DNA from: an uncultured Desulfobacter sp.
Lineage (GTDB): Bacteria > Desulfobacterota > Desulfobacteria > Desulfobacterales > Desulfobacteraceae
DNA: 64,000 bases
Assembly: GCA_963665095.1 (NCBI GenBank)
Contig: OY762069.1
Coordinates: forward strand, 1,344,001 to 1,408,000
Direction: 5' to 3'
Shown here: one piece after another, positions 7,472 to 30,947 of the stretch
Layout: every line of letters begins with the position of its first letter
Numbering within the stretch: the first letter of the stretch is position 1
The notes under the pieces: generated by a model
What the model saw: the letters and a program-made list of their open reading frames with translations, nothing else
Databases searched by the model: none
What the model was told of the DNA's origin: nothing
Program-made: the position numbers and the translations under genes

Positions 7472-8131
7472 ATGGATTTTGCCGTTATTTCAGATAACCT
7501 GGGGTATATGGCCGGCGGGCTGTGGCTGACCTTTCAAATTGCGGCCATGGCCGTATCCGGCGGCCTGGCCTGGGGAATTATCCTGGGGCTTGGCCGGCTT
7601 TCTCCCATCCGGCTGATCTATTATCCAGCCAGCTTTTATATTCATTTTTTCAGAGGAATTCCTCTGATCCTGGTCATTTTCTGGATCTATTTTTTGATGC
7701 CGGTGCTTTTGGACCGGTCCATGGGTCAGCTGCCTGCGGTGGTACTCTCCTTTATTCTTTACGAGGCCGCCTATTTTGCGGAAATTGTCCGGTCCGGCAT
7801 CCAGGCCGTGCCTTTAGGCCAGAAAAGGGCCGGTCTTGCCACAGGACTTCGGCCCTGGCAGCTGGCAGGCCATGTGATTCTGCCCCAGGCCTTAAAAAAG
7901 ATGGTACCGGCTTTGGTAACCCATTGCGTGGTGGTTTTCCAGGACACCTCCCTTGCCTATGTGATCGGCCTTCGGGAATTCTTGCGCCGGGTGAATCTGG
8001 TGGATGCCCGGGAAGCCCGTTCTGTGGAGCTTTATCTATTTGCAGCCGGTGTTTATTTTATTTTATGCACCCTGGGAACCTTCCTTGGCAAATACCTGGA
8101 AGACAGGCCCCAAAAAAAGGATATTTCGTGA
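7472..8131 (+). CDS. Amino acid ABC transporter permease
   Basis: FRGIPLILVIFW, EAAYFAEIVRSGI and QDTSLA. Confidence 0.9.
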   Translation: MDFAVISDNLGYMAGGLWLTFQIAAMAVSGGLAWGIILGLGRLSPIRLIYYPASFYIHFFRGIPLILVIFWIYFLMPVLLDRSMGQLPAVVLSFILYEAAYFAEIVRSGIQAVPLGQKRAGLATGLRPWQLAGHVILPQALKKMVPALVTHCVVVFQDTSLAYVIGLREFLRRVNLVDAREARSVELYLFAAGVYFILCTLGTFLGKYLEDRPQKKDIS

Positions 8132-8868
8132 TTGAAATCAGACACCTGGAACTTTCCTATGGCAGCCATCAGGCCCTGGCCGATGTGTCAATCAATATTG
8201 AAAAAGGACAGACACTGGTGGTATGCGGCCCTTCAGGGTCGGGTAAATCCACCCTGCTTCGGTGTATCAACGGCCTGGAACGATTCCAAGGCGGCGAAAT
8301 TTATGTGGACAAGGTCTCTGTCCAGGCCAGGGATACGGATATCTATGCCTTACGGTCCCGGATCGGCATGGTATTTCAGCATTTTGAGCTTTATCCCCAT
8401 AAAACCGTACTGGACAACCTGACCCTGGCTCCGGTAAAAGTAAACAAAGTACCCCGGGCCAAAGCCCGGGAAAAGGGCCTGGCCCTGCTGGATCAGGTGG
8501 GGATCGCAGATCAGGCCCACAAGTATCCGGCCACACTTTCCGGCGGACAGCAGCAGCGGGCCGCCATTGCCCGGGCACTGGCCATGGAGCCTGCCGTCAT
8601 GCTCTTTGATGAACCCACATCTGCACTTGACCCGGAAATGATCAAAGAGGTACTTGAGGTTATGGCAGGACTTTCCCGCTCGGGCATGACCATGGTGGTG
8701 GTCACCCATGAAATGGGATTTGCCCGCAGGGCCGCAGATGAGATCGTGTTTATGGACAAAGGCCGAATCGTGGAAAAAAATACTGCCCGGGAATTCTTTC
8801 TGCGGCCGGCTCATGAACGGACCCGGCAATTTTTGGGCAGGGTAATGGACGAGCCTTTTAATGAATAA
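8128..8868 (+). CDS. Amino acid ABC transporter ATP-binding protein (GlnQ/GltL-like)
   Basis: GTG 8128 overlaps the upstream stop; GPSGSGKS, LSGGQQQR, FDEPTSALD and VTHE. Confidence 0.93.
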   Translation: MIEIRHLELSYGSHQALADVSINIEKGQTLVVCGPSGSGKSTLLRCINGLERFQGGEIYVDKVSVQARDTDIYALRSRIGMVFQHFELYPHKTVLDNLTLAPVKVNKVPRAKAREKGLALLDQVGIADQAHKYPATLSGGQQQRAAIARALAMEPAVMLFDEPTSALDPEMIKEVLEVMAGLSRSGMTMVVVTHEMGFARRAADEIVFMDKGRIVEKNTAREFFLRPAHERTRQFLGRVMDEPFNE

Positions 8869-8886
8869 AATTAAGGGTAAAAAAAG

Positions 8887-9711
8887 ATGACTGCAAAATT
8901 TGAGATCAGTTTATTGTGTGAGGACCAGGTGGTAATGGGGTTCAAAGACCGGATTTTCAAAGGGGTACATGGCCTATCCCTGTTTATCCGGGCTGAACAG
9001 AACATTTTGTTTGATGCCGGTCCTTCGGATGTGTTTCTTGATAATGCCGGTTTGATGGACTTAAACCTTAACGATCTGGACTGGATCGCTTTAAGCCACG
9101 GCCACTGGGACCATGCCGACGGCCTTGCTTTTTTGGCCAGTCGCCTCAAAAAAACAAAACTGATTGCCCACCCTGCCGTATTTTCGGACCGGCATAAACC
9201 CACCGGAGAATTCAACGGCATGTCTCTGTCACGAGAAGACCTTGAGGCCTCTTTTGACCTGGAACTGTCCCAAGGCCCTAAACAGTTGACGCCCAGCGTC
9301 TGGTTTCTGGGTCAGATCCCCCGGGCCAATGATTTTGAGTCTGTTTCCACACCGTTTTATAAAATAGAACAGGGGGAAAAATTACCGGAATTTCTTGAAG
9401 ACGATACGGCCTTAGCCATCACAACCGGCCAGGGAATCGTGGTCATTGCAGGATGCGCCCATGCCGGAATTTGCAATATCTGCGACCATGCCAAATCCGT
9501 CACTGGCCAGGACCGGATCCATATGGTCATGGGTGGATTTCATCTGCTTTCAGCCGGGGAGCAACTGGACCGGACCGTTGAATATTTCAAGGCCCATCCC
9601 GTGGACCGCCTGCTGCCCATGCACTGTACAGGCTTTGAGGCCCTGTGCCGGTTTCACCGTGAGCTGAACGCTGAAAAAGCAGCCACAGGCCAGACCATAT
9701 GTGTTGGATAG
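8887..9711 (+). CDS. MBL-fold metallo-hydrolase
   Basis: HGLS, LFDAG, SHGHWDH, GCAHAG, GGFHL and PMHCTG. Confidence 0.88.
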   Translation: MTAKFEISLLCEDQVVMGFKDRIFKGVHGLSLFIRAEQNILFDAGPSDVFLDNAGLMDLNLNDLDWIALSHGHWDHADGLAFLASRLKKTKLIAHPAVFSDRHKPTGEFNGMSLSREDLEASFDLELSQGPKQLTPSVWFLGQIPRANDFESVSTPFYKIEQGEKLPEFLEDDTALAITTGQGIVVIAGCAHAGICNICDHAKSVTGQDRIHMVMGGFHLLSAGEQLDRTVEYFKAHPVDRLLPMHCTGFEALCRFHRELNAEKAATGQTICVG

Positions 9712-10129
9712 ACAAACAGCGGCACAAAAATCCTGGCTGGTGGGGATACCCCGGATAGTTTCGTGATGGGGGAGATGATGGATGGGATATTGGAACGCGT
9801 TAAGCCGGATTTGAATGCCGCTTTCTTATGAAATGAAGCAATAAAACATGTAATAGAATACCCGACACTGTGATGAGATTGTTATGCGTCGATAGAATAT
9901 TATACATTTATAAATTTCATGTTTTATTTTAGTCAGTTATATAACCACATGTCGCTTAATGAATAAATTCTTATTCAATATTTTCTATTTTTTCATCCCT
10001 CCTTTTTACAAAACCCTGCATTAACAGACCTGAAATGGGTCATGTATAAACGCTTGACTTATTTTAACCACTTAAATTTACAACTTATCTTAACTTCATA
10101 AAAAGGATTCCCCCCTCTTTCCGCTCTTT

Positions 10130-10145
10130 TGGCAAGCTATTTGCT
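10130..10145 (+). promoter_or_regulatory. Sigma54 (-24/-12) promoter of the beta-oxidation/TRAP operon
   Basis: TGGCAA-GCTAT-TTGCT with exact GG-N10-GC spacing, ~85 nt before ATG 10231, after a long AT-rich intergenic region. Confidence 0.8.
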
Positions 10146-10230
10146 CAATTGTCTTTTCAATGAATTTTTAAAAAATTTAACAGCGCGCATTGGTTAGTCA
10201 ACCCGATGTTGAAAAGGATAATGCAAAGAT

Positions 10231-16420: not shown

Positions 16421-16462
16421 ACCACATCCGGACAGATCTTTTTGCAAAAGGAGCCGATCAAC

Positions 16463-17851
16463 ATGGGCAACTCGTTCATGCAGGACTATGAATCAAAATT
16501 TATTTCCGCAAAACAGGCCGCCGGAATGGTTCAGTCCGGGCAGACCATCCACCTTGGCGGATCTGCCAACGGGGCCGTTATCATTGGAAAATATCTGGCC
16601 CAGCGGGTGAATGAACTGACAGATGTATCCGTGAAAACCTTTCTTGATACCGCGAGTCACGACTTCTGCAAAGTTGACCCGGAGGGAAAAACATTTAACT
16701 GGTCATCGGGATTTCTGCTCGGTCATGTCAGGCCTTTCTCCAAAGAAAGAGGGGTGGGCGTTTATATTCCTGAAAGCTGGCACATGGCCCCTCAGGTTTA
16801 CCGCACCACGCTTCATTTTGATTATTTCTTTGTTGTGACAGCCCCCATGGACAGCAAGGGTTTTTTTAACTTCGGGCTGACCTCAGGTCATCATCGTTCC
16901 ATTGCTGATGTGGCTGACAAGGTGGTGGTAATCGAACGTGATGACATGCCGGTGATCTACGGCGGGTATGAAGAGGGGCTGTTTCTGGATGAAGTGGATT
17001 ATGTAACAAAAGACGATGAGTTTGACACCTTTTGTCTGCCCCCTATTCAGTCCAGGCCCGAAGATAAGATGATTGCCGAAAACATCATTGAGGCTGGCCT
17101 GATAAAAGAGGGATCCACCCTGCAGATCGGCATCGGCGGTCTGCCCAATGCAGTCCTGGACTCCATTGCCCAGTCCGGGATTAAGGAGTGCGGGCTGCAT
17201 ACGGAGATGCTCACTTCCAAGATGGTGGATCTCATTGAAAACGGGGTGGTGACCAACAGCCGGAAACATCTGGACCGGTTAAAAACGGTTTTTACCTTCT
17301 GTCTTGGAGACCGGGCCCTTTACGACTATGCCGACCGCCACCCTGGCTTTGCCATGTATCCCGTGAATTACACCAACGATCCCATGATCATCGCCCAACA
17401 GCCAGACATGTTTTCCTTAAACAGCACCATCAGTGTGGACCTGACCGGACAGGCTGCTTCAGAGCAGGTGGCGTGGGAAGGCCGGGCCAGACAGATCAGC
17501 GGGACCGGCGGGCAGCTTGATTTTGTTATGGGGACCTTGATGGCCAGAGACAGGAAGGGGATTTCCGTGCTCTCTTTGTATTCCAGATATAAAGATGTCT
17601 CAAGGATTGTTCCCCTGCTGGACCAGGGAGCTACAGTCACAGTACCGAGATCAATCACCCATTATATTGCCACAGAATGGGGGGTGGTCAATGTCCGGGG
17701 CCTGACCAACAGCGAGCGTGCCAGTGCCCTGATTTCCATTGCCCATCCCGATTTCCGGGAAGATCTGACCCGGCAGGCCTTTGATATGGGGCTGATTTCC
17801 TACGCCCAGACGGTCAAAAAGAAACAAGGCGTTATATTTACCAGGCAATAA
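16463..17851 (+). CDS. Acetyl-CoA hydrolase/transferase family CoA-transferase (4-hydroxybutyrate/butyryl-CoA type)
   Basis: TLQIGIGGLPNA, HTEM, SGTGGQLDF and IAHPDFRE. Confidence 0.9.
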   Translation: MGNSFMQDYESKFISAKQAAGMVQSGQTIHLGGSANGAVIIGKYLAQRVNELTDVSVKTFLDTASHDFCKVDPEGKTFNWSSGFLLGHVRPFSKERGVGVYIPESWHMAPQVYRTTLHFDYFFVVTAPMDSKGFFNFGLTSGHHRSIADVADKVVVIERDDMPVIYGGYEEGLFLDEVDYVTKDDEFDTFCLPPIQSRPEDKMIAENIIEAGLIKEGSTLQIGIGGLPNAVLDSIAQSGIKECGLHTEMLTSKMVDLIENGVVTNSRKHLDRLKTVFTFCLGDRALYDYADRHPGFAMYPVNYTNDPMIIAQQPDMFSLNSTISVDLTGQAASEQVAWEGRARQISGTGGQLDFVMGTLMARDRKGISVLSLYSRYKDVSRIVPLLDQGATVTVPRSITHYIATEWGVVNVRGLTNSERASALISIAHPDFREDLTRQAFDMGLISYAQTVKKKQGVIFTRQ

Positions 17852-17902
17852 CGAAAAGTTAGTGCCCATTGAGGAATATTTATCAACCAACGGAGGTATC
17901 GC

Positions 17903-18904
17903 ATGACTAAACGGACAGTACGGCTCATCGGCATTCTTGTTTCTCTAATTTTCCTTCTCCCCCAGGCAGGCCTGGCCAAAAGCAAAAAGATCACGATTCA
18001 GTGTGCCTATCCTGCCAACGCCTACGTAGGGCAGACAACGGAATTTTTCGCAGACCGGGTAAAGGAGCTGACCAGCGGTGAGGTCTCGGTCAAGGTATTC
18101 TGGCCAGGCCAGCTGGTTAAAACAAAAGAGGCCTTTGAATCTGTCAAGACCGGCATGATTGACGGATACTCCGGCAGCATGCTCTATTTCACCGGATTCG
18201 TACCCGAGGTCAACTGCGAATGGCTTCCCTTTGGGTGGGCATCCCCTGCGGAAGCGGCGGATGTGTATAAGGATCACGGATGGCTTGAGCTGATGCGGGA
18301 AGCCACGGCAAAACACGGGATTCGCTACGTGGCACCGGTTGCTGTGGCCTCCATGGGTCTGATCACCAAATTCCCCATTCACAAGGCAGATGATCTTAAA
18401 GGCAAAAAAATCCGGGCCATGGGCATGGAGGCAAAGATCATTGCGGCCTTAGGCGGCGCCACTGTGGCCGTTCCGGGTGCAGAGCAGTACATGGCCCTGA
18501 AACAGGGCATTGTAGATGGCACAGATTATCCCTGGTACACCATTGGAAAATACAAACTCTTTGAGGTGTGTGATTATATTTCAAGACCGGCCCTGCATAC
18601 CCCCGGTATTGTTGAAATCCTGATCAACAACGACACCTACCAGTCACTGACACCTGCCCAGCAGAAAGCCATTGACCAGGCCGGATGGGAAGCGTTCATG
18701 AGAACGGTTGAGATGAGTGACAAATGGGATGAGGACGCCTATGTCACCTGCAAAGAAAAAAATGTCCAGATTATAGACCTCACCCCTGAAGCCATTGCCG
18801 AGTTCAGAGAAAAGGTACAGCCGCTCTGGGACGAGATGGCGGCAAAAAGCGATATCTGCAGACGGCTGATTGAAAACTTAAGAGCGTACATGGCTAACAA
18901 ATAA
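17903..18904 (+). CDS. dctP: TRAP transporter substrate-binding protein DctP
   Basis: Signal peptide; DLKGKKIR and YMALKQGIVDG; followed by Q and M subunit genes. Confidence 0.9.
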   Translation: MTKRTVRLIGILVSLIFLLPQAGLAKSKKITIQCAYPANAYVGQTTEFFADRVKELTSGEVSVKVFWPGQLVKTKEAFESVKTGMIDGYSGSMLYFTGFVPEVNCEWLPFGWASPAEAADVYKDHGWLELMREATAKHGIRYVAPVAVASMGLITKFPIHKADDLKGKKIRAMGMEAKIIAALGGATVAVPGAEQYMALKQGIVDGTDYPWYTIGKYKLFEVCDYISRPALHTPGIVEILINNDTYQSLTPAQQKAIDQAGWEAFMRTVEMSDKWDEDAYVTCKEKNVQIIDLTPEAIAEFREKVQPLWDEMAAKSDICRRLIENLRAYMANK

Positions 18905-18907
18905 AAC

Positions 18908-19435
18908 ATGACAGGGGGAAGCAGCTTGAAACGCCTATGTGATTTCATTGACGGACTCAACACCTGGATTGGTAAGATTGCCAGTTTTCTGATCCTGATT
19001 CTTGTAGCCATTATCATGTTTGAGGTGGTCAGCCGCTATCTGTTCAACGCGCCCACCCAGTGGTCCAACGAACTGAGCGCCTACCTTCTGACCGCGCTTG
19101 TTATGCTGGGTGGCGCCTATTGTCTTGCGGATGAAGAGCATGTCCGGGTGGATATCGTGCACCGCAATTTCGGCCCGCGCGCCCAGGACCTTCTGGAGAT
19201 CTTCACCTGCCTTCTGGTGCTGACATTTGTCAGCGCCATTGTCTGGAAAGGTGGAGAGACCAGTTATGATGCACTGGTACATGACAGGCGGTCCATGACC
19301 ATCCTGGAGATGCCGCTTTTCCCCTCCATGGTGATGGTTCCCATCGGGGCGGCCCTTCTTGGCCTTCAGAGTATTTCCGGTGCCTTGAGAGCCTTCCTTC
19401 GCCTGACCGGTAATGACCAGAAAGGAGTGCATTGA
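18908..19435 (+). CDS. dctQ: TRAP transporter small permease DctQ
   Basis: EVVSRYLFNAPTQWSNEL, HVRVD and four TM segments. Confidence 0.9.
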   Translation: MTGGSSLKRLCDFIDGLNTWIGKIASFLILILVAIIMFEVVSRYLFNAPTQWSNELSAYLLTALVMLGGAYCLADEEHVRVDIVHRNFGPRAQDLLEIFTCLLVLTFVSAIVWKGGETSYDALVHDRRSMTILEMPLFPSMVMVPIGAALLGLQSISGALRAFLRLTGNDQKGVH

Positions 19436-19439
19436 TTCC

Positions 19440-20750
19440 ATGGAAACCTGGCTTCTCACCCTCATTGTTTTCAGCTGTCTGATTTTTCTGCTCTGCCTTG
19501 GGGTCCCGATCTCGTTCACCCTGTGCAGTATTTCCACCATCGGAATTATCCTGACCTGGGGCCCCAAAGGGCTGCTTCTCCTGTTTAACTCTGCCTATGC
19601 CGAATCCAGCTCTTTTATTCTTCTGGCCATTCCGTTGTTTATTTTCATGGCCAACCAGCTCAAGTTCAGCGGCATCGGCGATGACCTGTATGAGATGGTC
19701 TACCGGTGGATCGGCCGGGTACGGGGCGGGCTTGCCATCGGCACCATAGTGATCTGTGCCATTTTTGCCGCCATGGCAGGCATCTCGTCTGTGGCCACCA
19801 TCAGCATGGGGCTGATTGCCCTGCCCTCCATGTTCTCCAGGGGGTACCACAAAGATCTGGCCGTGGGCAGCATTGCAGCCGGCGGGGCTCTGGGCATACT
19901 GATACCGCCCTCAATCATCATGATCCTTTACGGGGCCATGTCAGAAGTATCGGTGGGTAAAATGTTCATCGGCGGTGTGATGCCGGGGCTTGTCATGTGC
20001 CTGATTTTCATTGGCTACATCTGGATCCGCTCTATGATCAACAAAGATCTCGCCCCGGCCGTCGAGGAAACCTTTACACTGAAGGAAAAACTGACAGTTC
20101 TCAAAGGGGTATTTCTTCCCATCCTTTTGATCTTCATGGTTCTGGGTGTCATTTATTTTGGCATCTGCACACCCACCGAGGCATCGGCTGTGGGTGCTTT
20201 CGGTGCCATGTTATGTGCGGCGTTATATAAAAAGTTCACCTGGCAGAATCTTAAAGATTCGCTGTGGGCCACCATAAAGGTCAATGCCATGGTGTTCTGG
20301 CTGATCATCGGGGCCCTGGCATTTACCAATTTTCTTGCCTATTCGGAGATACAGGACCTGATAAAGGACAGCGTCCTGGCACTGGAATATTCAAGATGGG
20401 TCATTCTCATCGCCATGCAGTTCATCTTTTTCATCCTGGGCATGTTCCTGGATCCGGCAGGGATCATCATGCTGACCACACCGATTTTTGTCCCGATTAT
20501 TGTGGAACTCGGGTTTGATCCCCTGTGGTTCGGCATCCTGTTTGTCATCAACATGGAGATGGCTTATATCACCCCGCCCTTTGGGTTCAACCTATTTATT
20601 ATGAAAGGGATTGTTCCCCCCGGAGTCAGCATGGCAGATATCTACCGGTCCATTATTCCCTTTGTCCTGTTACAGGCCCTCTGTCTGGTCCTGGTCATGA
20701 TTTTTCCCGAACTGGCCACATGGCTGCCGGAGCTTATGGTTACAAAATAA
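19440..20750 (+). CDS. dctM: TRAP transporter large permease DctM
   Basis: AIPLFIF, LGILIPPSI, TPTEAS and ITPPFGFNLF. Confidence 0.93.
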   Translation: METWLLTLIVFSCLIFLLCLGVPISFTLCSISTIGIILTWGPKGLLLLFNSAYAESSSFILLAIPLFIFMANQLKFSGIGDDLYEMVYRWIGRVRGGLAIGTIVICAIFAAMAGISSVATISMGLIALPSMFSRGYHKDLAVGSIAAGGALGILIPPSIIMILYGAMSEVSVGKMFIGGVMPGLVMCLIFIGYIWIRSMINKDLAPAVEETFTLKEKLTVLKGVFLPILLIFMVLGVIYFGICTPTEASAVGAFGAMLCAALYKKFTWQNLKDSLWATIKVNAMVFWLIIGALAFTNFLAYSEIQDLIKDSVLALEYSRWVILIAMQFIFFILGMFLDPAGIIMLTTPIFVPIIVELGFDPLWFGILFVINMEMAYITPPFGFNLFIMKGIVPPGVSMADIYRSIIPFVLLQALCLVLVMIFPELATWLPELMVTK

Positions 20751-21214: not shown

Positions 21215-22477
21215 TTACCGCTGCCTTTCCCTGGCATTCCCTGCCATAAAAATTGAAAAAACAGCTGCGGCATAGATCCCAAGAAACAACAGCATGGCAA
21301 AATGGTAACTGCCAAAATAATCATACAGCACGCCAGCACTGAATGCACCGAACGACGCACCTAATTGCTGGCCTAAAGAAATAAGACCGAGTACAATGCC
21401 AAAGGACTTCAGGCCATAATACCCGCTAACGGCCAAAGGCTGCAATACCAGAACCCCTCCCATGCCAAAGCCAAAAATGGCAGCATAGCCCCATACCATA
21501 TATTCTGAACTTAGATAAAATAAAAAAAGAACGCCGACTGCCTGTATAACATAACAGATAGTCACCACCCATTTCAGGGGCATGGATTCTGTCATCCGGC
21601 CAAAGCAGAATTTCCCTACCCCGCCCATTCCTGAGGTAATGCCCAGGGCATTTGATGCGGCAATATAGGAGATCCCTTTTTCACACATGATAGCCACCTG
21701 GTGCTGAAGAATTGCCAGCATGGCCATGCCGCCAAGAAAAAAAGTAATGGCAAGCCATCTGAAAGAGACGGTTGAAACTATCTCTTTTAATGAATTATCG
21801 GTTTCTTTGGATAATTCATCTGCGGCAAACTCCGACTTATGGCAAACGGAGCGTGGCGCAATGTCCCGGGGTTTTATGATCACCAGTTCTGTGCTGCTGT
21901 CACCAGGACGTTCCTTTATGACCAGAAAGGCAATGGGAACAGCAATAACCAAAACAAACAGCCCCAGGAAAATAAAGGCCTGACGCCATCCAAACAGCAG
22001 GCTTATCCTGCCGATCAACGGGGCAAATATCATACCTCCGGCAGAAATACCCATATAGACCAATCCGGTGGCGGTTCCTCTCCGGGTATCAAACCAGCAG
22101 GCAATAAGCGTGCTGATAGGTATGTAGCCGATCCCGATGATGGTTAGAGCCAGCAGGGCATACAGCAGGTAAAAGGTTAAAAGATTTTTGGATAAACTGA
22201 TCAGAAAAAAACAAAGGCTTGATCCAAAGGCCCCCATACAGATCACTTTTTTGGGTCCCATGGTTTGAACCAGACGGCCCACAATGGGCGAGGCCATGCC
22301 GCTGACCAGCAGATAGATGGATATGGTCAGCGCAATTTCTGTTCTGCTCCAGCCGAACTCCGCCTCAAGAGGTTCAATAAACACGCCGAAAGAATAAAAC
22401 CCTGAACCTGCAAAACACATCAGCAGAACAAATCCTGCTGCAACAATGAACCAGCCGTAAAATACTTTTGTCTGCAT
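21215..22477 (-). CDS. MFS transporter (monocarboxylate/OFA-like)
   Basis: FYGWFIV, FGVFIEPLEAEFGWSR, WFDTRRGTATG and ~12 TM segments. Confidence 0.9.
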   Translation of the reverse strand: MQTKVFYGWFIVAAGFVLLMCFAGSGFYSFGVFIEPLEAEFGWSRTEIALTISIYLLVSGMASPIVGRLVQTMGPKKVICMGAFGSSLCFFLISLSKNLLTFYLLYALLALTIIGIGYIPISTLIACWFDTRRGTATGLVYMGISAGGMIFAPLIGRISLLFGWRQAFIFLGLFVLVIAVPIAFLVIKERPGDSSTELVIIKPRDIAPRSVCHKSEFAADELSKETDNSLKEIVSTVSFRWLAITFFLGGMAMLAILQHQVAIMCEKGISYIAASNALGITSGMGGVGKFCFGRMTESMPLKWVVTICYVIQAVGVLFLFYLSSEYMVWGYAAIFGFGMGGVLVLQPLAVSGYYGLKSFGIVLGLISLGQQLGASFGAFSAGVLYDYFGSYHFAMLLFLGIYAAAVFSIFMAGNARERQR

Positions 22478-22572: not shown

Positions 22573-24801
22573 TTAAAAATTAAGCGTCATCAAGTTTGAA
22601 GCGGTATCTGCCGGTGGTTCCAGTACCACATTCTTTTCCTGACCCATGATATTTTTTCCGGCAATGGATCGGATCATTTGCATGGACTTTTCCATGTGTG
22701 CAATAAACTCTTTGGATGGCATGAGTTGTGATATAATTTTGGTTGATGAGTCGATGTAAACATTTTCTTTGGCAGCTTTATCTGCAAACAAAACCGCTTT
22801 TTCCAGCATCTCCAGACTCCGTTTTGCAATGGCCACTGTCCGATATAGGGAAAAGTCCCATAATGCGACAGCGTGCGTAAAACAGGCATTTGCCCGGGCC
22901 GGATTCAGTGCCACAGATTCATCATATATTTTAAACCGGCTGGCCAGAAAATCTTTGATAAAATCAAGATTACACTCTTTTTTCAGATCTGCCCTGCCCA
23001 TGGTGAGCAGCCACAGCCGTTCTTCCGAAATTTTGCGGACAATATCAAACGGTGCGTCTATCCCTTTTTCCGGATTGACTAAAATTTCCTCGTCATTTTC
23101 AAGCGTCGCCCGCAGAATTTTTAAGACATTAAGAGAATAGGAAGCCCGGATTGCAAAGGGTGACACCGTCATCGCCTTCTCATAAAAAAAGTTGGCTTTC
23201 TGCATGCTGTCAAACAGGGCTGCTTTCAAACGTTTCAATTCCTGGGTATTTATTTCAGCCGGTTTCCGGCTGCGAAGATGTTTCAGAAGCATGACGGCTT
23301 TTGTTGTATACGTGGTGGCATATTCACAATAGAAATAATCAGACACCCCGTCACAGCTTTCAATAATAAAAGCCGCTTCATGTTCCACCCGGTTAAAAAA
23401 AATATCAGCAATGGAAACAGAAGGTGCAGAAAGCGCAAGCTCCCTGAAAATAGCGATATGCAGTGTTCTTGCAGTGATCTCATTGGGGTCGATACTCAGA
23501 ACAATACGAATTATTTCCTCTGCTTCCTGAAATCGCTTACGATAATATAAGGTCTTTGCAATCTCAATTCCCACAGGAATATTGTGCGGATACCTTAAAA
23601 ATGTGGTGACCGCGTTTGTTGCATTGTTTTTGTGCGTGTCAGTGACAAAATTTTTGGCAGGTGCCAGAAGATCAAAAACGGTCTCTTCGGGCTTAGGTCG
23701 AAGCTGCAGCATCTTATCCTGGAGTATGTCCGGAATAAAATCAAAGAAAAAAGAGTTCCAGAAGGCAGTGATCCACCAGATTCTGAAGGCTTCGCCATTG
23801 ATTAATGTCGCCTCAATGGGCTCGGTGCTGCAGATGACACGGACGTCGCTGATGAGCAGGCACTGGCGGACATAGTCTGACAGACGGATGGGCGCATCCC
23901 CGGGCAGCTTTATATTCAACGCGGCAAGCAGATAGTTGTCCAGCGTATCAAACTGACCGGCGGCAATGGCAACAGAAAAGAAGCGCTTGGTGGAGTAATA
24001 CCTGGAAAGCACCCAGCGGATGGTAACCAGGTGAGCCAGTGACACAGCATTTTTAATGCAGGAGCGATAGGAAGCCGGATCACTTGAGTCTGATTCTTTG
24101 GGGATATCGATAAAAAAAGTGGTAAAGTCATGGGAACGGATTTTACTCCACCGGTCTGACTGGACGTATTCAGAACTCTGTTCAATATATTCATAAATTG
24201 ACTTTTTCAGCCAGTTCATGACGGCATTATCAATCATATCCCCCCGGCTGTATAACGCAAAACCGATCCGTACCCCCTCCTTATACTGCTGGGTTGCATC
24301 GTCTCTGGGGCAGATTTTCATCAGGGATTCATAATTCCAGGCAGGGCTCAGGTCGCAGCGTTCGTACCCGATCCAGAATGCCAGACTCCGTAACACATTT
24401 TTTTTATGGAGCGTATCTGCCGGCTGCACTTTCAGCCGTGTCAGCATTGAATTGCTGACATTGGGCAGTTTAATACCATGATTTTTCAGCAAAGGATTGA
24501 TTCGGTCAATCAATGAACGCACCGACAGGCTGAAATTCAACCAGACATCTCTTTTTTCCAGCAGTTCGGAAAACTGCAGATTTTCCGGAGGCCTGCACGC
24601 GTCTTCCGATCTGGCTTCCCGGGCGATATATGCTTCAAGGTGTTGAAAACTATTTTCTGAGATCAGGTGGTTATCTGCTGCAAAATCAATAAAAGAGTTC
24701 ACCGCTGCCGAGGTGTCGTCATTATCTGCAAACGATGAAAAAGATTCGCTGGTGGGAAAAACCGCGAGAAGTGCAGATGCCGCCCGATTATGTTGTTTCA
24801 T
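22573..24801 (-). CDS. Hypothetical 742-aa protein; putative XRE-like HTH + degenerate class III cyclase-like domain + TPR region
   Basis: Long intact ORF; TPR-like IAKTLYYRKRFQEAEEIIRIVLSIDP; other domain calls are by-eye pattern matches only. Confidence 0.7.
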   Translation of the reverse strand: MKQHNRAASALLAVFPTSESFSSFADNDDTSAAVNSFIDFAADNHLISENSFQHLEAYIAREARSEDACRPPENLQFSELLEKRDVWLNFSLSVRSLIDRINPLLKNHGIKLPNVSNSMLTRLKVQPADTLHKKNVLRSLAFWIGYERCDLSPAWNYESLMKICPRDDATQQYKEGVRIGFALYSRGDMIDNAVMNWLKKSIYEYIEQSSEYVQSDRWSKIRSHDFTTFFIDIPKESDSSDPASYRSCIKNAVSLAHLVTIRWVLSRYYSTKRFFSVAIAAGQFDTLDNYLLAALNIKLPGDAPIRLSDYVRQCLLISDVRVICSTEPIEATLINGEAFRIWWITAFWNSFFFDFIPDILQDKMLQLRPKPEETVFDLLAPAKNFVTDTHKNNATNAVTTFLRYPHNIPVGIEIAKTLYYRKRFQEAEEIIRIVLSIDPNEITARTLHIAIFRELALSAPSVSIADIFFNRVEHEAAFIIESCDGVSDYFYCEYATTYTTKAVMLLKHLRSRKPAEINTQELKRLKAALFDSMQKANFFYEKAMTVSPFAIRASYSLNVLKILRATLENDEEILVNPEKGIDAPFDIVRKISEERLWLLTMGRADLKKECNLDFIKDFLASRFKIYDESVALNPARANACFTHAVALWDFSLYRTVAIAKRSLEMLEKAVLFADKAAKENVYIDSSTKIISQLMPSKEFIAHMEKSMQMIRSIAGKNIMGQEKNVVLEPPADTASNLMTLNF

Positions 24802-24868: not shown

Positions 24869-24907
24869 TTGTTTCAATTGAAACAACAATTAGTTCACAT
24901 GAAACGA
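24869..24907. promoter_or_regulatory. Perfect 18-bp palindrome plus a degenerate copy (candidate operators)
   Basis: TTGTTTCAATTGAAACAA at 24869-24886; TTAGTTCACATGAAACGA at 24890-24907 matches 13 of 18 positions. Confidence 0.7.
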
Positions 24908-25050
24908 CAAATCCCCTGAAACCCAAAATATATTTGATTCATGTTTCAAAAGAGTATATCTAATTTTCTGAAATATATTTCTGCATAACCTGTTTTGTCA
25001 AGAAATTTGTATACCTGTCTGAACCTTTGACAAGGGGGCGTTATCCCATC

Positions 25051-26808
25051 ATGTACGAGAAAAAACCATGGCTGAAATCTTATAACGGTATTCCTGAAAC
25101 AATCAACTACCCAAGGGTAACCATGTACGAAGCTGTGATGCAGACAGTGGAACGGTATCCGGACTATGTTGCCTATGACTGCATGGACTATACAGCGACA
25201 TATCAACAGTTTTCAGAACAGATCGATCAGCTGGCAAATGCCCTTTTCGGCATCGGGGTCCGGCAGGGAGATGTTTTCACCATTGCCATGCCAACCTGCC
25301 CCCAGGCAGTGATATGCTTTTATGCCGCCAATAAATTAGGGGTTGTGGTCAGCATGATTCACCCGCTGTCAACAGCAAAGGAGATCGCTTACTACCTGGG
25401 AATTACCAGCAGCCGGTTTGCTTTGACCATGACGGAACATTATAAAAAATTTAAACAGGTTCAGAGTGAGACCCGTCTGGAAACGCTGATTCTTACAGAA
25501 CTTACCGATTTTTTAAATCTTCCGACTACCACGGGACAGCAAACACATCCCGATCCCATGGTATTTTCCTGGACTGATCTCATGACAGCATCCCATCCTG
25601 AGGCACCCAGAGGAAATATGGACACCGGCGAGATGGCCGCCATTCTATACAGCGGTGGCACAACAGGATTTCCCAAGGGAATCATGCTCTCCAACGCTAA
25701 TTTTATCAGCCAGGGAATGATGACGGCGTCTTTGCGCGGCATTCCGCCTGAAGCGTATGCCATACTGGTAATTCTTCCGGTCTTTCACGGATATGGTTTA
25801 GGTGTCTGCTGTAATGCCACCTTTATGTTAGGCGGCAAAGCCATCCTGGTTCCTAATTTTAAACCCGAAACCTTTGCCCGGTTAATCCAGACGAAACGAC
25901 CATCGGTCATTACCGGTGTTCCGACACTTTACGACGCACTCAGCAGGAATGCTCAGTTTCTAAAGGCCGATCTGGGCTGCCTTAGATCGGCCGGTTGCGG
26001 CGCTGACACGCTTCCCCGGACAGTCAAGGAGCGGTTTGAAAAAATTGTTCAGCCCTTTGGCAACAATGTACGGCTGTTAGAAGGATACGGGCTGACAGAA
26101 GCCGTCACCGGGATTATGGGAACCCCGGCCGACGGATACCGGGAGAACAGCGTTGGCATTCCCTATCCGGACATGATGGCTAAGGTCGTAAAAATCGGCA
26201 CCACAGAAGAGGCCCCGGTGGGTGAAGAGGGGGAACTTTGTGTCAGCGGTCCTGCGGTCATGCTCGGATATCTCGGACAGCCCGAAGAGACAGCTGCCAC
26301 GCTTAAAATGCATCCGGATGGACGCACATGGCTTCACACCGGAGATATCTTCACCATGGATGAAGATGGATATTTTTATTACAAACTGCGACTCAAACGC
26401 ATGATCAAATCATCCGGCATGAATGTCTATCCCATGCAGGTTGAAGAGGTGCTGCGCCAGCATCCTGCTGTTCAAAGTGCCTGTGTGATCGGCATTCCGG
26501 ATGAGGCACAGGTTGAACGGGTCAAGGCGTTTGTGGTCCTTAAAGATCCGTCCGTTTCAGACCCGTCCGCCAAGGAGCAATCTGCAGCCCACCAGGCTGC
26601 AACACACCGGGACATCGCAGATCCGGATATGGCCGACGCTTTGATTACTCACTGCCGTGAGCATCTCATCAAATGGTCCTGCCCCAGAGAAATTGCTTTT
26701 CGGGATTCTCTGCCACTGACCCGGGTCGGTAAAATTGCCTGCGCAGAACTGGAAAAAGAAGAACTGGCCCGACTAAAAGCAGAAGGGAAATATACTGGAG
26801 GGAAATAG
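25051..26808 (+). CDS. AMP-forming acyl-CoA synthetase (FadD/LcfA-like)
   Basis: YSGGTTGFPKG, EGYGLTE, WLHTGD and LPLTRVGK. Confidence 0.93.
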   Translation: MYEKKPWLKSYNGIPETINYPRVTMYEAVMQTVERYPDYVAYDCMDYTATYQQFSEQIDQLANALFGIGVRQGDVFTIAMPTCPQAVICFYAANKLGVVVSMIHPLSTAKEIAYYLGITSSRFALTMTEHYKKFKQVQSETRLETLILTELTDFLNLPTTTGQQTHPDPMVFSWTDLMTASHPEAPRGNMDTGEMAAILYSGGTTGFPKGIMLSNANFISQGMMTASLRGIPPEAYAILVILPVFHGYGLGVCCNATFMLGGKAILVPNFKPETFARLIQTKRPSVITGVPTLYDALSRNAQFLKADLGCLRSAGCGADTLPRTVKERFEKIVQPFGNNVRLLEGYGLTEAVTGIMGTPADGYRENSVGIPYPDMMAKVVKIGTTEEAPVGEEGELCVSGPAVMLGYLGQPEETAATLKMHPDGRTWLHTGDIFTMDEDGYFYYKLRLKRMIKSSGMNVYPMQVEEVLRQHPAVQSACVIGIPDEAQVERVKAFVVLKDPSVSDPSAKEQSAAHQAATHRDIADPDMADALITHCREHLIKWSCPREIAFRDSLPLTRVGKIACAELEKEELARLKAEGKYTGGK

Positions 26809-26869
26809 AAGTTTAAACTCCTTCTTTGAAGCAGAAACAAAAAAAGATAATACCAGGGAGGACGTCATC

Positions 26870-28009
26870 ATGACAGCTGGTGAAACACTTGAAATGTTAT
26901 ACAACGAACGGGGGCAGCGTGCCCGTAAGCTGCATGAATCAGGGAAAAAGGTAGTGGGACATCTCTGCAGCTTTGTTCCAGATGAAATTTTTACAGCCCT
27001 GGATATGATTCCCTTTCGTATCCAGGGAAGCCAGAGCGAACCCATTGACCAGGCAGATGCCTATATTGAACCCATGGCCTGCCCTTTTGCACGCAGCTGT
27101 TTCAACCTCGCACTGAAAGGCCAGTACGATTTTCTGGATGGTTTTGTCGCGCCACACAGCTGTGACACCATTGAGCGGATGTTTCATATCTGGCATCATC
27201 AAAAACCCTGTTCATACAATCATCTCTTAAATGTTCCCCATATGCTGGGTCCTGGATCCACTGCCTTTTTCAAGGACCAGCTGGCATATTTCATCAAAAC
27301 GCTGGAAGCATGGTCGGGCCGGAAACTTGAACAGGAAAAACTTCGCGAGGCAGTAACGCTTTATAACAGGCGCAGAGCCCTTCTCAGAGAGCTTTATACG
27401 TTGCGTAAAACCAGCCCGCCCCAGGTGTCAGGAGAAGAGGTCACAAAAGCCGTGGTTGCCGGAATGGGAATACCGGCCCGGGAGCATGTTGATCTGATTG
27501 AACAGTATATTGCTGAAATAAAAGCCCGGCCGGCACCGGAGGAGAAAGGGTTTGCCCGTGTTTTTCTCTGGGGGTGTGAATTGGATGATACCGCATTTAT
27601 CAGTCTGGTGGAAGAGAGCGGTGCCAGTGTCGTCATGGATGATTTGTGTACGGGGAGCCGTTTCTTCTGGGACGACTGCCCGGAAACACCGGACCCTCTG
27701 GATGGCATCGCTGACAGATACCTGAAAATCAAGTGTCCGAGGACCAACATTCCCCAACAGGCAACCCGGGAGGCTGAGTTGGAGAATCGTTACGGGCATA
27801 TCAGGCAGTTCATAGAGGCGTGGGAAGCAGACGCTGCGATTTTCTACATCATCCGCTACTGTGACACCAGCGAGCTCGAAGGCCCAGATCTCAGAGAGTA
27901 CCTGAACAGTATGAACATTCCCGTCCTGATGATTGAGGACGATTACTCGATTTCCACAATCGGGCAGTTACGGACCCGTGTCCAGGCCTTTCTGGAAATG
28001 CTTGACTAA
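26870..28009 (+). CDS. 2-hydroxyacyl-CoA dehydratase / benzoyl-CoA reductase family subunit (BzdN/BcrC-like)
   Basis: CSFVPDE, CPFARS, HSCD, DDLCTGSR, CPR, YCD and GQLRTRVQAFLEM. Confidence 0.88.
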   Translation: MTAGETLEMLYNERGQRARKLHESGKKVVGHLCSFVPDEIFTALDMIPFRIQGSQSEPIDQADAYIEPMACPFARSCFNLALKGQYDFLDGFVAPHSCDTIERMFHIWHHQKPCSYNHLLNVPHMLGPGSTAFFKDQLAYFIKTLEAWSGRKLEQEKLREAVTLYNRRRALLRELYTLRKTSPPQVSGEEVTKAVVAGMGIPAREHVDLIEQYIAEIKARPAPEEKGFARVFLWGCELDDTAFISLVEESGASVVMDDLCTGSRFFWDDCPETPDPLDGIADRYLKIKCPRTNIPQQATREAELENRYGHIRQFIEAWEADAAIFYIIRYCDTSELEGPDLREYLNSMNIPVLMIEDDYSISTIGQLRTRVQAFLEMLD

Positions 28010-28020
28010 GGAGGAGGCAC

Positions 28021-29322
28021 ATGGAACCACAAGAGAAAAAAAGAACCACGGCAGTCAAGGGAACCAATGCCGCCCGGAAAATCAGGGGGCTGGTAAAAAA
28101 TATTTATACCTCGGCCCATGAGGCAAAGCAGCAGGGGAAGAAACTGGCCTATATTATGGTCACATCTCAGTATGATGAAATTGTTCGAGCCATGGACATT
28201 GTCCCGATGCCCACTGAAAACTATGCAGGCCTTTGTGCGGCCAAACGGGAGATGGACCGGTTTCTATTAAAAGCGGAAGAAGACGGCTATTCACAGGTAT
28301 TGTGCAGCTATGCCCGCATCGGGCTGGGCTTTGACAGCCTGCGTAAAGAAGCGGGAACCATACCGGAGGGTTCTCCGGACGGCGGCATGCCCATGCCGGA
28401 CATGATGCTGGGCAGCAGCGCGGTCTGTGATCCCCGTTTTAAGTGGTACCAGGCAGCCGGGCGATTTTTACATGTCCCCACCTACAGCATCGACTGTGTT
28501 GCCCCGCCACCCCAAGCAGATCTCAGTGAAGTGCGAGACAGTTACATAAAATATCAAAAAGAGCAGTTTCTGGGCCTGATTGCATTTCTGGAAACACAGA
28601 CCGGGAAAAAAATGGATATGGAACGTCTCTGGGAAACGATCCGGCTCGGGGATAAAGCGTGGCAGCTCTGGTACGAGGTTGACCGGCTCCGGGTGGCAGT
28701 TCCGAGCCCCATGCCGGCCCAGGACCATTTCAGTATCATGGTGCCGGGCTATTACTATGCCGGTACCCAGGCGGCTGTAGATTTTTACCAGGAACTGTAT
28801 GATGAGGTGAAACAACGGGTTGACAGTAAAACCGGGGTCATTCCGGATGAGACCTATCGTCTGCTCTACGGCGGCGGGCTGCCGCCCTGGCATACCTTGT
28901 GGATCTTCAATTATTTTGAGAGCTTTGGCGCGGTCTTTGTGGCTGAGAATGTATACCGCAACTACGACCCGGTGGAGGTGCCGAGCCATATCAAGGATCC
29001 GGTGGACTATCTTGCCTGGCGGACCTTTCTTCGATACACCCAGCGGTATGACGAGGCCAGGGCAAACAGCGGCAACCCCAGGATTGAACGCCTGCTGCAG
29101 ATGATTGAGGACTACCAGACCTGCGGTGTGGTTTTCCATGCCTGCCGGTCCTGCCGTGCCACCACCATCGGTCAGATACATCTGAAAAATGTGCTGGCAG
29201 AGTACACAGACATCCCGATGATGCAGCTGGTGTCTGATATGGTGGACTTAAGAGACTATTCCGAAGCCCAGTGGAAGGCACAGATCGGCGCCTTTATGGA
29301 TGCCCTGGCCGCAAGGAGGTAA
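28021..29322 (+). CDS. 2-hydroxyacyl-CoA dehydratase / benzoyl-CoA reductase family subunit (BzdO/BcrB-like)
   Basis: PTENY, LCSYAR, CDPRFKWYQ, SCRA and SDMVD. Confidence 0.88.
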   Translation: MEPQEKKRTTAVKGTNAARKIRGLVKNIYTSAHEAKQQGKKLAYIMVTSQYDEIVRAMDIVPMPTENYAGLCAAKREMDRFLLKAEEDGYSQVLCSYARIGLGFDSLRKEAGTIPEGSPDGGMPMPDMMLGSSAVCDPRFKWYQAAGRFLHVPTYSIDCVAPPPQADLSEVRDSYIKYQKEQFLGLIAFLETQTGKKMDMERLWETIRLGDKAWQLWYEVDRLRVAVPSPMPAQDHFSIMVPGYYYAGTQAAVDFYQELYDEVKQRVDSKTGVIPDETYRLLYGGGLPPWHTLWIFNYFESFGAVFVAENVYRNYDPVEVPSHIKDPVDYLAWRTFLRYTQRYDEARANSGNPRIERLLQMIEDYQTCGVVFHACRSCRATTIGQIHLKNVLAEYTDIPMMQLVSDMVDLRDYSEAQWKAQIGAFMDALAARR

Positions 29323-29334
29323 GAAAAAGCAACC

Positions 29335-30165
29335 ATGTATTTCGCCGGCATTGACATCGGTTCGACCATGACAAAGGTGGTGGTAATCGATGAAAAAATG
29401 AGCGTGCTTTCGTCCGTGATCGGCCCCACAGGGGTTGAGCACCGCCATCTTGCGTTTGCCGTGATGGAGGACGCCCTGGAGAAAATCGGGGTGGGTATTG
29501 ATCAGGTGGATTTCATTGTGGCCACCGGGTACGGCCGGATCAATGTGCCCTTTGCAGACCGGCAGGTGACGGAGATTACCTGTCATGCCAGGGGAATTCA
29601 TTGGCTTTTCCCGTCAGCCAGGGTGATCATTGATATCGGCGGACAGGATTCCAAGGGCATCAAACTGGATGACCAGGGAAAAGTCATTAATTTTGCCATG
29701 AATGACAAATGTGCTGCCGGGACGGGGCGTTTTCTTGAAGTGATCGCAGAAACCCTTGGCCTCTCCCTTGAACAGATGGGCGAGGTATCCCTCAAGGCAG
29801 ACAAGCCGGTTCCTATTTCCAATATGTGCACTGTATTTGCAGAGCATGAGGTCACCTCTCACCTGGCAGAAGGCGCAGGGGTGCCGGAAATTGTTGCCGG
29901 CCTCCATGCGGCCATCGCTGCCAGGGTCGTCAATATGGTAAGACACCTTGGCATACGTGAGGATGTGGTTTTTACCGGAGGCGGGGCCAAAAATATCGGA
30001 CTGATCAAAGCGCTGGAAGAAAAGATCGGCCAAAACGTGTTTACTGCGCCAGAACCCCTGATCACCGGAGCGCTTGGCGCAGCCCTCTCTGGAAAAATTT
30101 TTACTGACAAGGGGGTCAGGCGCACAAGCGTAAGGAAACAAAAGGGGGTCACTTTTTTCTCATGA
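29335..30165 (+). CDS. ATP-dependent electron activase (HgdC/BzdQ-like, ASKHA fold)
   Basis: GIDIGSTMTK, ATGYGR, TEITCHARG, DIGGQDSK, NDKCAAGTGRF and CTVFAE. Confidence 0.92.
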   Translation: MYFAGIDIGSTMTKVVVIDEKMSVLSSVIGPTGVEHRHLAFAVMEDALEKIGVGIDQVDFIVATGYGRINVPFADRQVTEITCHARGIHWLFPSARVIIDIGGQDSKGIKLDDQGKVINFAMNDKCAAGTGRFLEVIAETLGLSLEQMGEVSLKADKPVPISNMCTVFAEHEVTSHLAEGAGVPEIVAGLHAAIAARVVNMVRHLGIREDVVFTGGGAKNIGLIKALEEKIGQNVFTAPEPLITGALGAALSGKIFTDKGVRRTSVRKQKGVTFFS

Positions 30166-30947
30166 AAACAGACCAGACATTTTTAGGACTGGATATCGGC
30201 TCTGTGTCGATCAAGGCAGCTGTTGTCCGCCGGCAGACCCTGATCGCATCTCAAATTCTGCCCTCCGGCGGCACCTATCGGGAAACGGCCCGTAAAGTCA
30301 TGGAGGCTGTTCTTAAAGACAGCGGCATGGATGAAAATCAGATCACCGGCACCCTTGTCACAGGAATGGGGGCGGAACGCGTTCCCTTTGATGCCCCTGT
30401 GGTCTCAGACATTTCATGCCAGGCTGCCGGGTGTCACGGTCTTTTCCCCTCGGCAAGGACTCTGATCGACATCGGCGGCCAGTTTACGAAAGTTGCCCGG
30501 ATCACACCCAAAGGACAAATCGCAGATTTTCTGATCAGTGAAAAATGTGCCACTGGTTCGGGGCGGTTTCTGCAGGTCATCAGCCGCATTCTGCAGGTCC
30601 GGTTCGAGGAGATCGGCCCGTTGTCATTAACCGCACTAAACCCTGTAAAATTTTCAACAAACTGCGCTGTTTTTGCAGAATCTGAAACGGTTTCCCGGAT
30701 TGCAGAAGGGGCAAAACCTGCGGATATCCTTGCAGGTGTCCACCGTGCCATGGCATCAAAGGTGGCCATGCTGGTCAAGCGTGTAAAAATGGAACCGGAT
30801 GTGGTTGTGACCGGAGGCGGCGGCGTGGATGAGGGACTTGCCGATGCCATCGGCCAGTCTTTGGGAATAGAGGTCGTTGTTCCGGCAACCCCCAGGATAA
30901 CGGCTGCATTTGGTGCTGCCTGCCTGGCAGAGAAAAGATCAATTTAA
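30162..30947 (+). CDS. Second ATP-dependent activase subunit (BzdP/BcrD-like)
   Basis: GLDIGS, DIGGQ, EKCATGSGRF and CAVFAESE; 4-nt overlap with the previous gene. Confidence 0.9.
   Translation: MKTDQTFLGLDIGSVSIKAAVVRRQTLIASQILPSGGTYRETARKVMEAVLKDSGMDENQITGTLVTGMGAERVPFDAPVVSDISCQAAGCHGLFPSARTLIDIGGQFTKVARITPKGQIADFLISEKCATGSGRFLQVISRILQVRFEEIGPLSLTALNPVKFSTNCAVFAESETVSRIAEGAKPADILAGVHRAMASKVAMLVKRVKMEPDVVVTGGGGVDEGLADAIGQSLGIEVVVPATPRITAAFGAACLAEKRSI

Follow-up and report, generated by a model that had tools for sequence, protein, structure and literature searches.

A conserved Desulfobacterota protein with a cyclase-like domain and a helical-repeat tail as a probable DNA-binding regulator: evidence from a co-varying heptamer array in front of catabolic operons

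A 64-kb window of DNA from an uncultured Desulfobacter sp. (by window we mean the whole stretch analysed) contains a gene for a 742-amino-acid protein that stands back to back with an operon for a coenzyme A (CoA) ligase and a reductase/dehydratase-type enzyme. What does this protein do, and does it control the operon transcribed away from it? The gene (P0001) lies at 22573..24801 on the minus strand, has an ATG start and translates without an internal stop. When the whole protein was scanned, 0 families were found in each of Pfam, NCBIfam and PADLOC. The earlier note on this DNA had described an intact 742-aa open reading frame (ORF), divergent from a CoA ligase/reductase operon and with a major facilitator superfamily (MFS) transporter next to it, and the ORF list, the translation and Pfam agree with this description. 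The peptide stretches quoted there are also present at their places in the translation (LSVRSLIDRIN from residue 92, VSNSMLTRLK at 115-124 and NVLRSLAFW at 135-143). The protein is a member of a conserved Desulfobacterota family of regulator type, found in sulfate reducers and syntrophs, whose folds are predicted and which is undescribed in the literature searched; a full-text search, with most subscription journals outside its coverage, found no description of it. From the sequence comparisons below, we consider that the protein is probably a DNA-binding regulator of the divergent operon, acting as a repressor that is released by a ligand. A DNA-binding switch is likely because nearly every relative has an array of heptamers beside the gene, and this array changes in step with a residue of the N-terminal head.

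We fetched 79 related loci from species-representative genomes and clustered their neighbouring genes. For the intergenic analysis, 65 divergent intergenic regions (20.8 kb) were scanned against 389 control intergenic regions of the same loci (109 kb). The heptamer TGTTTTA had 113 copies in 50/65 divergent regions and 26 copies in the 389 controls, a 22-fold enrichment, and TGTTTCA had 56 copies in 33/65 divergent regions (12-fold). The heptamers keep a fixed spacing and orientation; a distance of 27 bp was seen in 32 cases and one of 25 bp in 25, and the distances of 17 and 10 bp occurred in 9 cases each. On the regulator strand, the consensus of 39 arrays starts with a TATA-like hexamer followed by TRAAACA, N2, TGTCAA, about N10 and TGTTTYA, and continues with an A-rich stretch, CGTTTTA, N3, TRAAACA, N6 and TGTTTT. 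An 87-bp matrix built from these 39 arrays found the same layout and offset in most of the remaining loci. With this matrix the window array scored 12.6, and the control regions had a median of -50.5 and a 95th percentile of -33.1.

In the window, the most visible part of the array is the 16-bp perfect palindrome TGTTTCAATTGAAACA at 24870..24885, which consists of two heptamer half-sites (TGTTTCA-AT-TGAAACA). The heptamers TGAAACG at array position s3 (24900..24906) and TGAAACC at position s2 (24917..24923) were placed by sequence, by the position weight matrix of the array and by a geometry scan. They are followed by a -35-like box, TTGATT (24934..24939, plus strand), which has the position of the family's TTGACA box in the promoter facing the CoA ligase operon. 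The heptamer TGTTTCA at position s1 (24942..24948) is within the spacer between the -35 and -10 boxes, as in 61 arrays, and the -10-like TATCTA (24957..24962, plus strand), at the family position of a TATAnA-like hexamer, is 17 bp past the -35-like box. The array layout recurs around the window dyad, and therefore the window palindrome is a local variant of a family-wide element. The earlier note had suggested looking for the palindrome beside the gene in homologs, and the heptamer array, of which 24870-24885 is the local form, was found in most loci. The ortholog locus L004 has the dyad TGTTTCA-TAT-TGAAACA. In the 6.9-Mb host genome, the pattern TGTTTYA-N2-3-TRAAACA occurs at 3 places (a control pattern gave 1 per strand), and 2/3 of these places are directly upstream of the two family copies of this genome. 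An exact copy of the 16-mer at G000:C1:5757706-5757721 (L124:1501-1516) is the only other one in 6.9 Mb; it falls within the coding frame of a response-regulator receiver domain and is probably there by chance.

In the 61 arrays the -35 box starts with TTG in 61/61, reads TTGAC in 56/61 and is exactly TTGACA in 39/61. A TATAnA-like hexamer is located 17 bp from the TTGACA box and is oriented toward the divergent gene, with one heptamer in the spacer. The element TTGACA-17-TATAnA is thus, by prediction, a near-consensus sigma-70-type promoter facing the divergent gene. Relative to the predicted start, in our reading, the perfect dyad TGTTTYA-N3-TRAAACA (s3/s4) is centred near -71 and s2 is near -49. 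Rfam had no match in the intergenic region, and a known RNA element is for this reason not the explanation of the array. A promoter for the regulator itself (TTGACA-18-TATATT, minus strand, 25001-24972) was considered and rejected, as shuffled sequences give as many (1 found, 1.1 expected).

The arrangement of the genes was compared across the relatives with a simple longest-ORF caller (at least 90 aa), so the counts are approximate; L014, L028 and L056 were excluded from the neighbour counts because no full gene could be called in them. The upstream gene is on the opposite strand in 66/72 loci with a called upstream gene. Immediately upstream, the divergent gene most often encodes a fused aldehyde/alcohol dehydrogenase of the AdhE type (26 loci); next come CoA ligases (8 loci), SCP2 proteins (6), solute-binding proteins (4) and iron-containing alcohol dehydrogenases (Fe-ADH; 3). 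At least one gene for AdhE, Fe-ADH, aldehyde:ferredoxin oxidoreductase, CoA ligase, SCP2 or a binding protein is among the four upstream genes in 57/72 loci. The partner operon is therefore almost always one of alcohol, aldehyde or acid catabolism. The operon type of the window is shared only with L004, a Smithella assembly, where the CoA ligase is 64% identical and the position and gene order are the same. The genes 3' of the regulator are not conserved among the loci. Because the partner operon varies and the downstream genes are unconserved, the constant unit is the regulator gene with the DNA in front of it. Of the earlier proposal that homologs are divergent from CoA operons, the divergence was borne out by the 66/72 loci, but a CoA theme was not established, the AdhE type being commonest and CoA ligase accounting for 8 loci. 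In the same way, the proposal of a one-component regulator of a CoA-ester operon keeps its regulator part, through the array and the co-variation described next, and not its CoA-specific part.

Two sublineages keep the array layout and alter the heptamer word, to TGTCTTA in one and to TGGTTTA in the other. TGTCTTA repeats were found in 6/6 loci whose proteins have Asp116-Lys117 (L019, L020, L021, L052, L063 and L067). These D-K proteins read V-D-K-S-M-L, where the main group reads V-[ST]-N-S-M-L, and also carry N135D. L067 was not part of the first operator survey; its protein led us to predict the TGTCTTA type, which its DNA then showed. The second group, with Thr116-His117, comprises eight loci (L060, L061, L065, L068-L070, L072 and L073), and 7/7 of those scanned have TAAACCA, with TGGTTTA-type words at other positions. 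The T-H proteins read V-T-H-S-M-L together with T121I/M and Q134I/M, and form one clade (4/8 in that tree). In 57 main-group proteins, 256/742 positions are at least 85% conserved. Asn117 alone among the 742 positions has a new fixed residue in each of the two sublineages (Lys and His). In the D-K group, changes of this kind number just three (N30H, N117K and N135D), and two of them are within residues 115-138. In protein-DNA contacts, Asn commonly prefers an A:T pair, and Lys or His a G:C pair. The exchanges at residue 117 fit these preferences, with Asn for A:T at heptamer position 4, Lys for G:C at the same position and His for G:C at position 3. Residue 116 was compared as well: Ser or Thr there against C or T at heptamer position 6 gave raw counts of 22, 5, 7 and 15, which look associated but for which the tree allows only 2 independent contrasts. 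According to the record names, 5/8 T-H and 2/6 D-K copies share an assembly with a main-type copy. Since paralogues with different words share assemblies, insulation between paralogous regulators fits the pattern.

The D-K group also has a history of recombination. A tree built without the head columns splits the six D-K rows, and their union was rejected with an approximately unbiased p value (p-AU) of 0.0015, from a quick LG+G4 run in which the group was named after the first tree. In the mosaic L019, identity to L021 is 75-92% over the N-terminal 150 residues, and identity to L017 is 89% over residues 401-742. Mosaic regulator genes are also found in L020, L052 and L063, where a TGTCTTA-type operator and head are joined to a tail of the kind of L017, which is of TGTTTTA type. 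A convergent origin of the D-K/TGTCTTA pair was considered and dropped, since the L019 mosaic indicates recombination in which operator and head travelled together. At the level of these alignments, the mosaics show the head plus operator and the tail to be separable modules.

The residues that co-vary with the operator are in the N-terminal part of the protein. AlphaFold2 (AF2) models were made for the full length (mean predicted local distance difference test (pLDDT) 83.7, predicted template-modelling score 0.73) and for residues 5-402 (pLDDT 78.6). In these models the head (residues 1-165; 24307..24801, minus strand) has only helices over residues 3-163, with a pLDDT of mostly 83-94. Its candidate DNA-reading segment, defined by the co-variation with the heptamer, is residues 94-147 (24361..24522, minus strand) and includes Asn117 and Asn135. 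The segment is modelled as a helix (94-107), a loop, a helix (117-125), a loop and a helix (131-147). Asn117 starts the second of these helices and Asn135 is near the start of the third. The loop between the first two helices has 9 residues, exceeding a classical turn. The earlier note had seen an XRE/Cro helix bundle at about residues 85-150; the models agree that this part is helical, and the XRE label was not established, as the HTH_3 profile and hhalign searches were empty. A local pairing of NVSNSMLTRLK with the XRE recognition-helix motif is only a lead, the profile alignments being otherwise at noise level. The neighbours in the ESM Atlas are likewise leads, with values of 0.84-0.88 below the mark of 0.9; they include HTH_3+TPR clusters for the whole protein (0.86) and HTH_3/HTH_26 (0.84-0.85). 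A two-copy prediction of residues 5-402 scored 0.00 (mark 0.42), which speaks neither for nor against dimerisation.

The middle of the protein (residues 169-348; 23758..24297, minus strand) has a predicted fold like that of class III nucleotidyl cyclases, the cyclase homology domain (CHD). In the AF2 model, residues 175-346 follow the order beta-alpha-beta-beta-alpha-beta-alpha-beta-alpha-beta-beta. The structural matches of this domain to cyclases have a sequence identity of about 10%. PF00211 had no match in the protein, and a PF00211 scan of the host genome found 12 genes, not including this one. An hhalign comparison with the cyclases of the host genome gave a probability of 0.4%. The domain thus has a cyclase-like fold, but by sequence it does not belong to the enzyme family. 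A local pairing of HDITTLYVDFPKE with strand 1 of cyclases is a lead only. By eye, strand 1 appears to end in FALYS where cyclases have F-x-D, D225 appears at the beta2-beta3 turn, and GDxPIRxxDxxR appears in place of the cyclase GDxVNxAxR. In an alignment of 48 family members, the charged residues R178, R186, H224, R273, D288, D302, R306 and R312 are invariant in this domain, and D225 and D232 are nearly so. These many invariant charged residues argue for a working pocket rather than a mere spacer. The cyclase fold at about 175-345, proposed in the earlier note, is thus upheld by the AlphaFold model and the structural matches, while its label of a dead cyclase is not; "dead" may be the wrong word for a domain that may bind a ligand or even catalyse a reaction.

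The rest of the protein is, by prediction, a helical-repeat tail resembling tetratricopeptide repeats (TPR), with paired helices at residues 397-714 in the AF2 model (22660..23613, minus strand). This agrees with the TPR-like helices that had been described from about residue 410. Foldseek matched the tail to SPINDLY, OGT and a designed 8-repeat TPR at E values of 1.3e-3 to 6e-3 and TM values of 0.1-0.4, with the reservation that helical repeats cross-match easily, and no Pfam TPR model scores in the protein. The C-terminal end LMTLNF (residues 736-742, window 22576-22596) follows a variable linker and is nearly invariant; L737, T739, L740 and N741 are each at least 90% conserved in the family.

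We propose the following mechanism. The head would bind the heptamers, probably as a dimer on TGTTTYA-N3-TRAAACA, with extra contacts to the flanking half-sites, and N117 would read base pairs 3-4 of the heptamer. With the spacer heptamer and the upstream sites occupied, an otherwise strong promoter would be shut. Binding of a pathway metabolite by the cyclase-like pocket, the TPR tail or both would release the protein from the DNA. The target in the window would be the operon of the CoA ligase and the four-subunit reductase/dehydratase-type enzyme (25027-30947), and the inducer would be the substrate acid of this operon, the CoA ester of that acid or some related metabolite. We read the sign of control as repression because a heptamer sits in the spacer of a near-consensus promoter. 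A bolder version, which we offer tentatively, is that the family represents a new class of transcription factors. In this class DNA binding would be gated by a cyclase-fold domain in place of a classical sensor. The domain would bind a nucleotide or a nucleotide-bearing metabolite such as an acyl-CoA, contacted at its 3'-phospho-ADP moiety, or might even have kept the synthesis of a cyclic nucleotide, and an unclassified helical head would read a heptamer code set by residue 117. The code would be Asn117 for TGTTTYA, Lys117 for TGTCTTA and His117 for TGGTTTA, with the residue setting base pairs 3-4.

Several points weigh against the protein being a DNA-binding repressor, and most of them concern the head. 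No helix-turn-helix (HTH) family was found for it in Pfam or NCBIfam. A PF01381 (HTH_3) scan of the host genome hit 27 other places and none at this gene. When 36 head segments were compared with Pfam at E values up to 10, HTH_3, HTH_31 and HTH_26 did not appear and no consistent family emerged; HTH_24 and Mnt were each touched by one segment (E 0.06-0.14). An hhalign comparison of the head with a rough HTH_3 alignment from the host's own genome gave a probability of 0.8%; among the reference rows of the hhalign comparisons with HTH_3 and with cyclases, three were mis-oriented and contained stops. Sequence and profile searches of the PDB were at noise level, with best E values of 0.1 for the whole protein, 0.22 for the head and 0.77 for the middle domain. 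The viral structure library returned cyclase and GGDEF-type matches and no repressor-like fold, and no head fold emerged from the fold-search lists, which were occupied by the cyclase domain and for which the head was never searched alone. With the searches for a DNA-binding family or fold in the head empty, we infer from the array and its co-variation that this protein binds DNA.

The co-variation itself has limits of the same kind. No more than about 90-180 bp separate the operator from the codons of the head, and changes shared within a lineage are therefore partly expected from descent. Just two independent changes of the heptamer word are available, and the second D-K group is no third event because recombination moved the operator with the head. 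We roughly estimate that two sets of 3 and 14 changed positions among 256 would have one position in common with a probability of about 0.16; that the changes cluster in residues 115-138 contributes a further factor of perhaps ten. The window array is also a weak copy (12.6, where the training median is 76). The weakest point is the sign of control, which is uncertain: the dyad is near -71, a position that is also used by activators.

This last point leads to an unlikely alternative, in which the same protein, on the same array and in the presence of its ligand, would activate the divergent promoter, touching RNA polymerase from sites near -49 and -71. The places of s2 and of the s3/s4 dyad, in our reading about 49 and 71 bp ahead of the predicted start, suit such contacts, and large HTH-plus-repeat regulators such as AfsR, MalT and PlcR are often activators. 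However, no activator should be needed at a promoter with a 17-bp spacer and a -35 box at or near consensus (TTGACA 39/61; TTGAC 56/61), and one heptamer is inside the spacer, where a bound protein usually blocks the polymerase. We therefore prefer repression to activation.

It is improbable that the protein does not bind DNA at all and is instead a signalling enzyme or scaffold with a TPR-controlled cyclase-type domain, an unlinked factor reading the array and controlling both divergent genes. The empty family and fold searches with the head would agree with this, as would a cyclase fold with many invariant charged residues, as in a working pocket. However, the array accompanies the gene whatever the partner operon is, and the dyad occurs in the host genome only beside the two family copies and at one place in a coding region. 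An unlinked factor also leaves unexplained why the heptamer word changes with residue 117 and its neighbours, and the PF00211 profile misses the middle domain. Hardly credible is an anti-phage or stress system of the cyclase-plus-repeat type with incidental catabolic neighbours: PADLOC returned 0 families, no effector-like neighbour is conserved, and the neighbours that are conserved are catabolic genes for alcohols, aldehydes and acids. A DNA-binding repressor thus accounts best for the array, its position and its co-variation.

The protein can be compared with three kinds of known regulators. The RNPP/RRNPP regulators of Bacillota (PlcR, PrgX, NprR, Rgg and ComR) and phage AimR have an N-terminal DNA-binding HTH_3 head joined directly to a C-terminal TPR sensor, with a cognate gene for a signalling peptide. 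The 742-aa protein is like them in its N-terminal head, its C-terminal TPR-type part and the dyad operators beside the controlled genes. It differs from them by a cyclase-fold domain of about 180 residues between head and repeats, by the lack of an HTH_3 match and by its phylum, and its conserved partners are catabolic operons and not peptide genes (among called ORFs of at least 90 aa). RNPP regulators are treated in PMC3601965. CHD+LuxR and, separately, TPR+LuxR architectures are recorded for Actinobacteria in a census (PMC3466318). The CHD+LuxR proteins of Mycobacterium likewise have a class III CHD and a DNA-reading part, here a candidate one, in the same protein. Their LuxR/GerE HTH is C-terminal and their CHD matches the family profile, whereas the 742-aa protein has no GerE or PF00211 match and its operator-co-varying residues are N-terminal. 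BzdR/BoxR of Azoarcus (PMC3602430 and PMC6678401) has an HTH fused to a shikimate-kinase-like domain that senses benzoyl-CoA. In outline, it shares with our candidate an enzyme-derived nucleotide-fold sensor on a repressor of the adjoining anaerobic aryl-CoA operon. The 742-aa protein is cyclase-like and not a shikimate kinase, however, with no match to an SKI family, an extra TPR tail and a different operator word, and no sequence relation was found. The class III cyclases and their non-catalytic relatives, such as PDB 6yii (a "Class III adenylyl cyclase-like ATP-binding protein"), have about 10% identity to the middle domain, which differs from them in having no PF00211 score and in being fused to a DNA-linked head. 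The family therefore resembles the RNPP, BzdR and CHD+LuxR types in outline and fails one defining feature of each.

A word-indexed search found 244 homologues at E values up to 1e-3; the 120 listed are 42-53% identical and nearly all have 729-785 aa. The few with names come from Deltaproteobacteria, Thermodesulfobacteriota, Syntrophales, Smithellaceae and Desulfobacteraceae, and one source names the homologues TPR proteins. An exhaustive HMMER search gave 196 cluster representatives (50% identity), 101 of them at E values up to 1e-30. The full-length representatives have about 700-790 aa, and none is fused to a known domain. The 48-member alignment has a mean column identity of 62%, with invariant residues over the entire length. 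In a sample of the phylum, carriers were 18/401 genomes and 8/255 genera.

Some genomes have more than one copy. L007 carries two within a few kilobases (381-2609 and 8001-10226), L021 and L035 are both on contig CAYULE010000005.1, and one 4.77-Mb source contig holds three different members (P0017, P0075 and P0089). Such neighbouring copies on one contig point to an expansion of paralogues in the family. The host genome has a second, internally deleted copy at G000:C1:5263433-5264928 (loci L002, L003 and L123), whose pieces match residues 3-244 and 532-741, the middle being gone. The dyad TGTTTTAAGCTGAAACA is located about 46 bp upstream of this decayed copy. Beside it, on the opposite strand, is apparently just the C-terminal part of an aldehyde dehydrogenase, and the whole looks like a degraded regulator-plus-dehydrogenase cassette.

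The regulation of the anaerobic breakdown of alcohols, aldehydes, fatty acids and aromatic acids is largely unmapped in Smithella, Desulfatibacillum, Desulfatitalea and their relatives. If our reading is true, it would provide dozens of catabolic operons in syntrophs and sulfate reducers with a switch of their own, an operator that can be read and a predicted promoter. Anaerobic degraders would own insulated, re-targetable switches for alcohols, aldehydes and aromatic acids, and from the N/K/H-117 recognition rule a few orthogonal pairs of regulator and operator would follow, for use in anaerobe genetics and in biosensors. A cyclase fold serving as the sensor of a DNA-binding protein would also widen the known roles of this fold.

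In the window, the first gene of the likely target operon is the divergent acyl/aryl-CoA ligase at 25027..26808 on the plus strand (Pfam AMP-binding, 1.9e-77), for which the ATG at 25052 is an alternative start. Behind it, Pfam and NCBIfam-type searches place four genes of a benzoyl-CoA-reductase / 2-hydroxyacyl-CoA-dehydratase-type ATP-dependent enzyme (26870..30947, plus strand), namely two subunits of the HGD-D family (26870-28009 and 28021-29322) followed by two BcrAD/BadFG-type ATPases (29335-30165 and 30162-30947). A ligase with two HGD-D and two BcrAD/BadFG genes is the set typical of ATP-dependent benzoyl-CoA reductases and 2-hydroxyacyl-CoA dehydratases. For the four reductase/dehydratase-type subunits, every NCBIfam equivalog score was under its cut-off (bzdN 197 bits vs 453.8; HadB 161 vs 750). 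On the other side, 3' of the regulator gene and on the same strand, the MFS transporter gene occupies 21215..22477 (minus strand; Pfam MFS_1, 7.5e-44). It has a sub-threshold likeness to MFS carriers of lactate and of oxalate/formate, and an MFS gene (cluster 24) is 3' of the regulator in 3 other loci. Further away, the plus strand at 16442-20750 carries a gene of the acetyl-CoA hydrolase/transferase family and then a complete tripartite ATP-independent periplasmic (TRAP) transporter (DctP, DctQ and DctM). This stretch stops about 460 bp short of the MFS gene and may serve the region as another unit for carboxylate uptake and CoA transfer.

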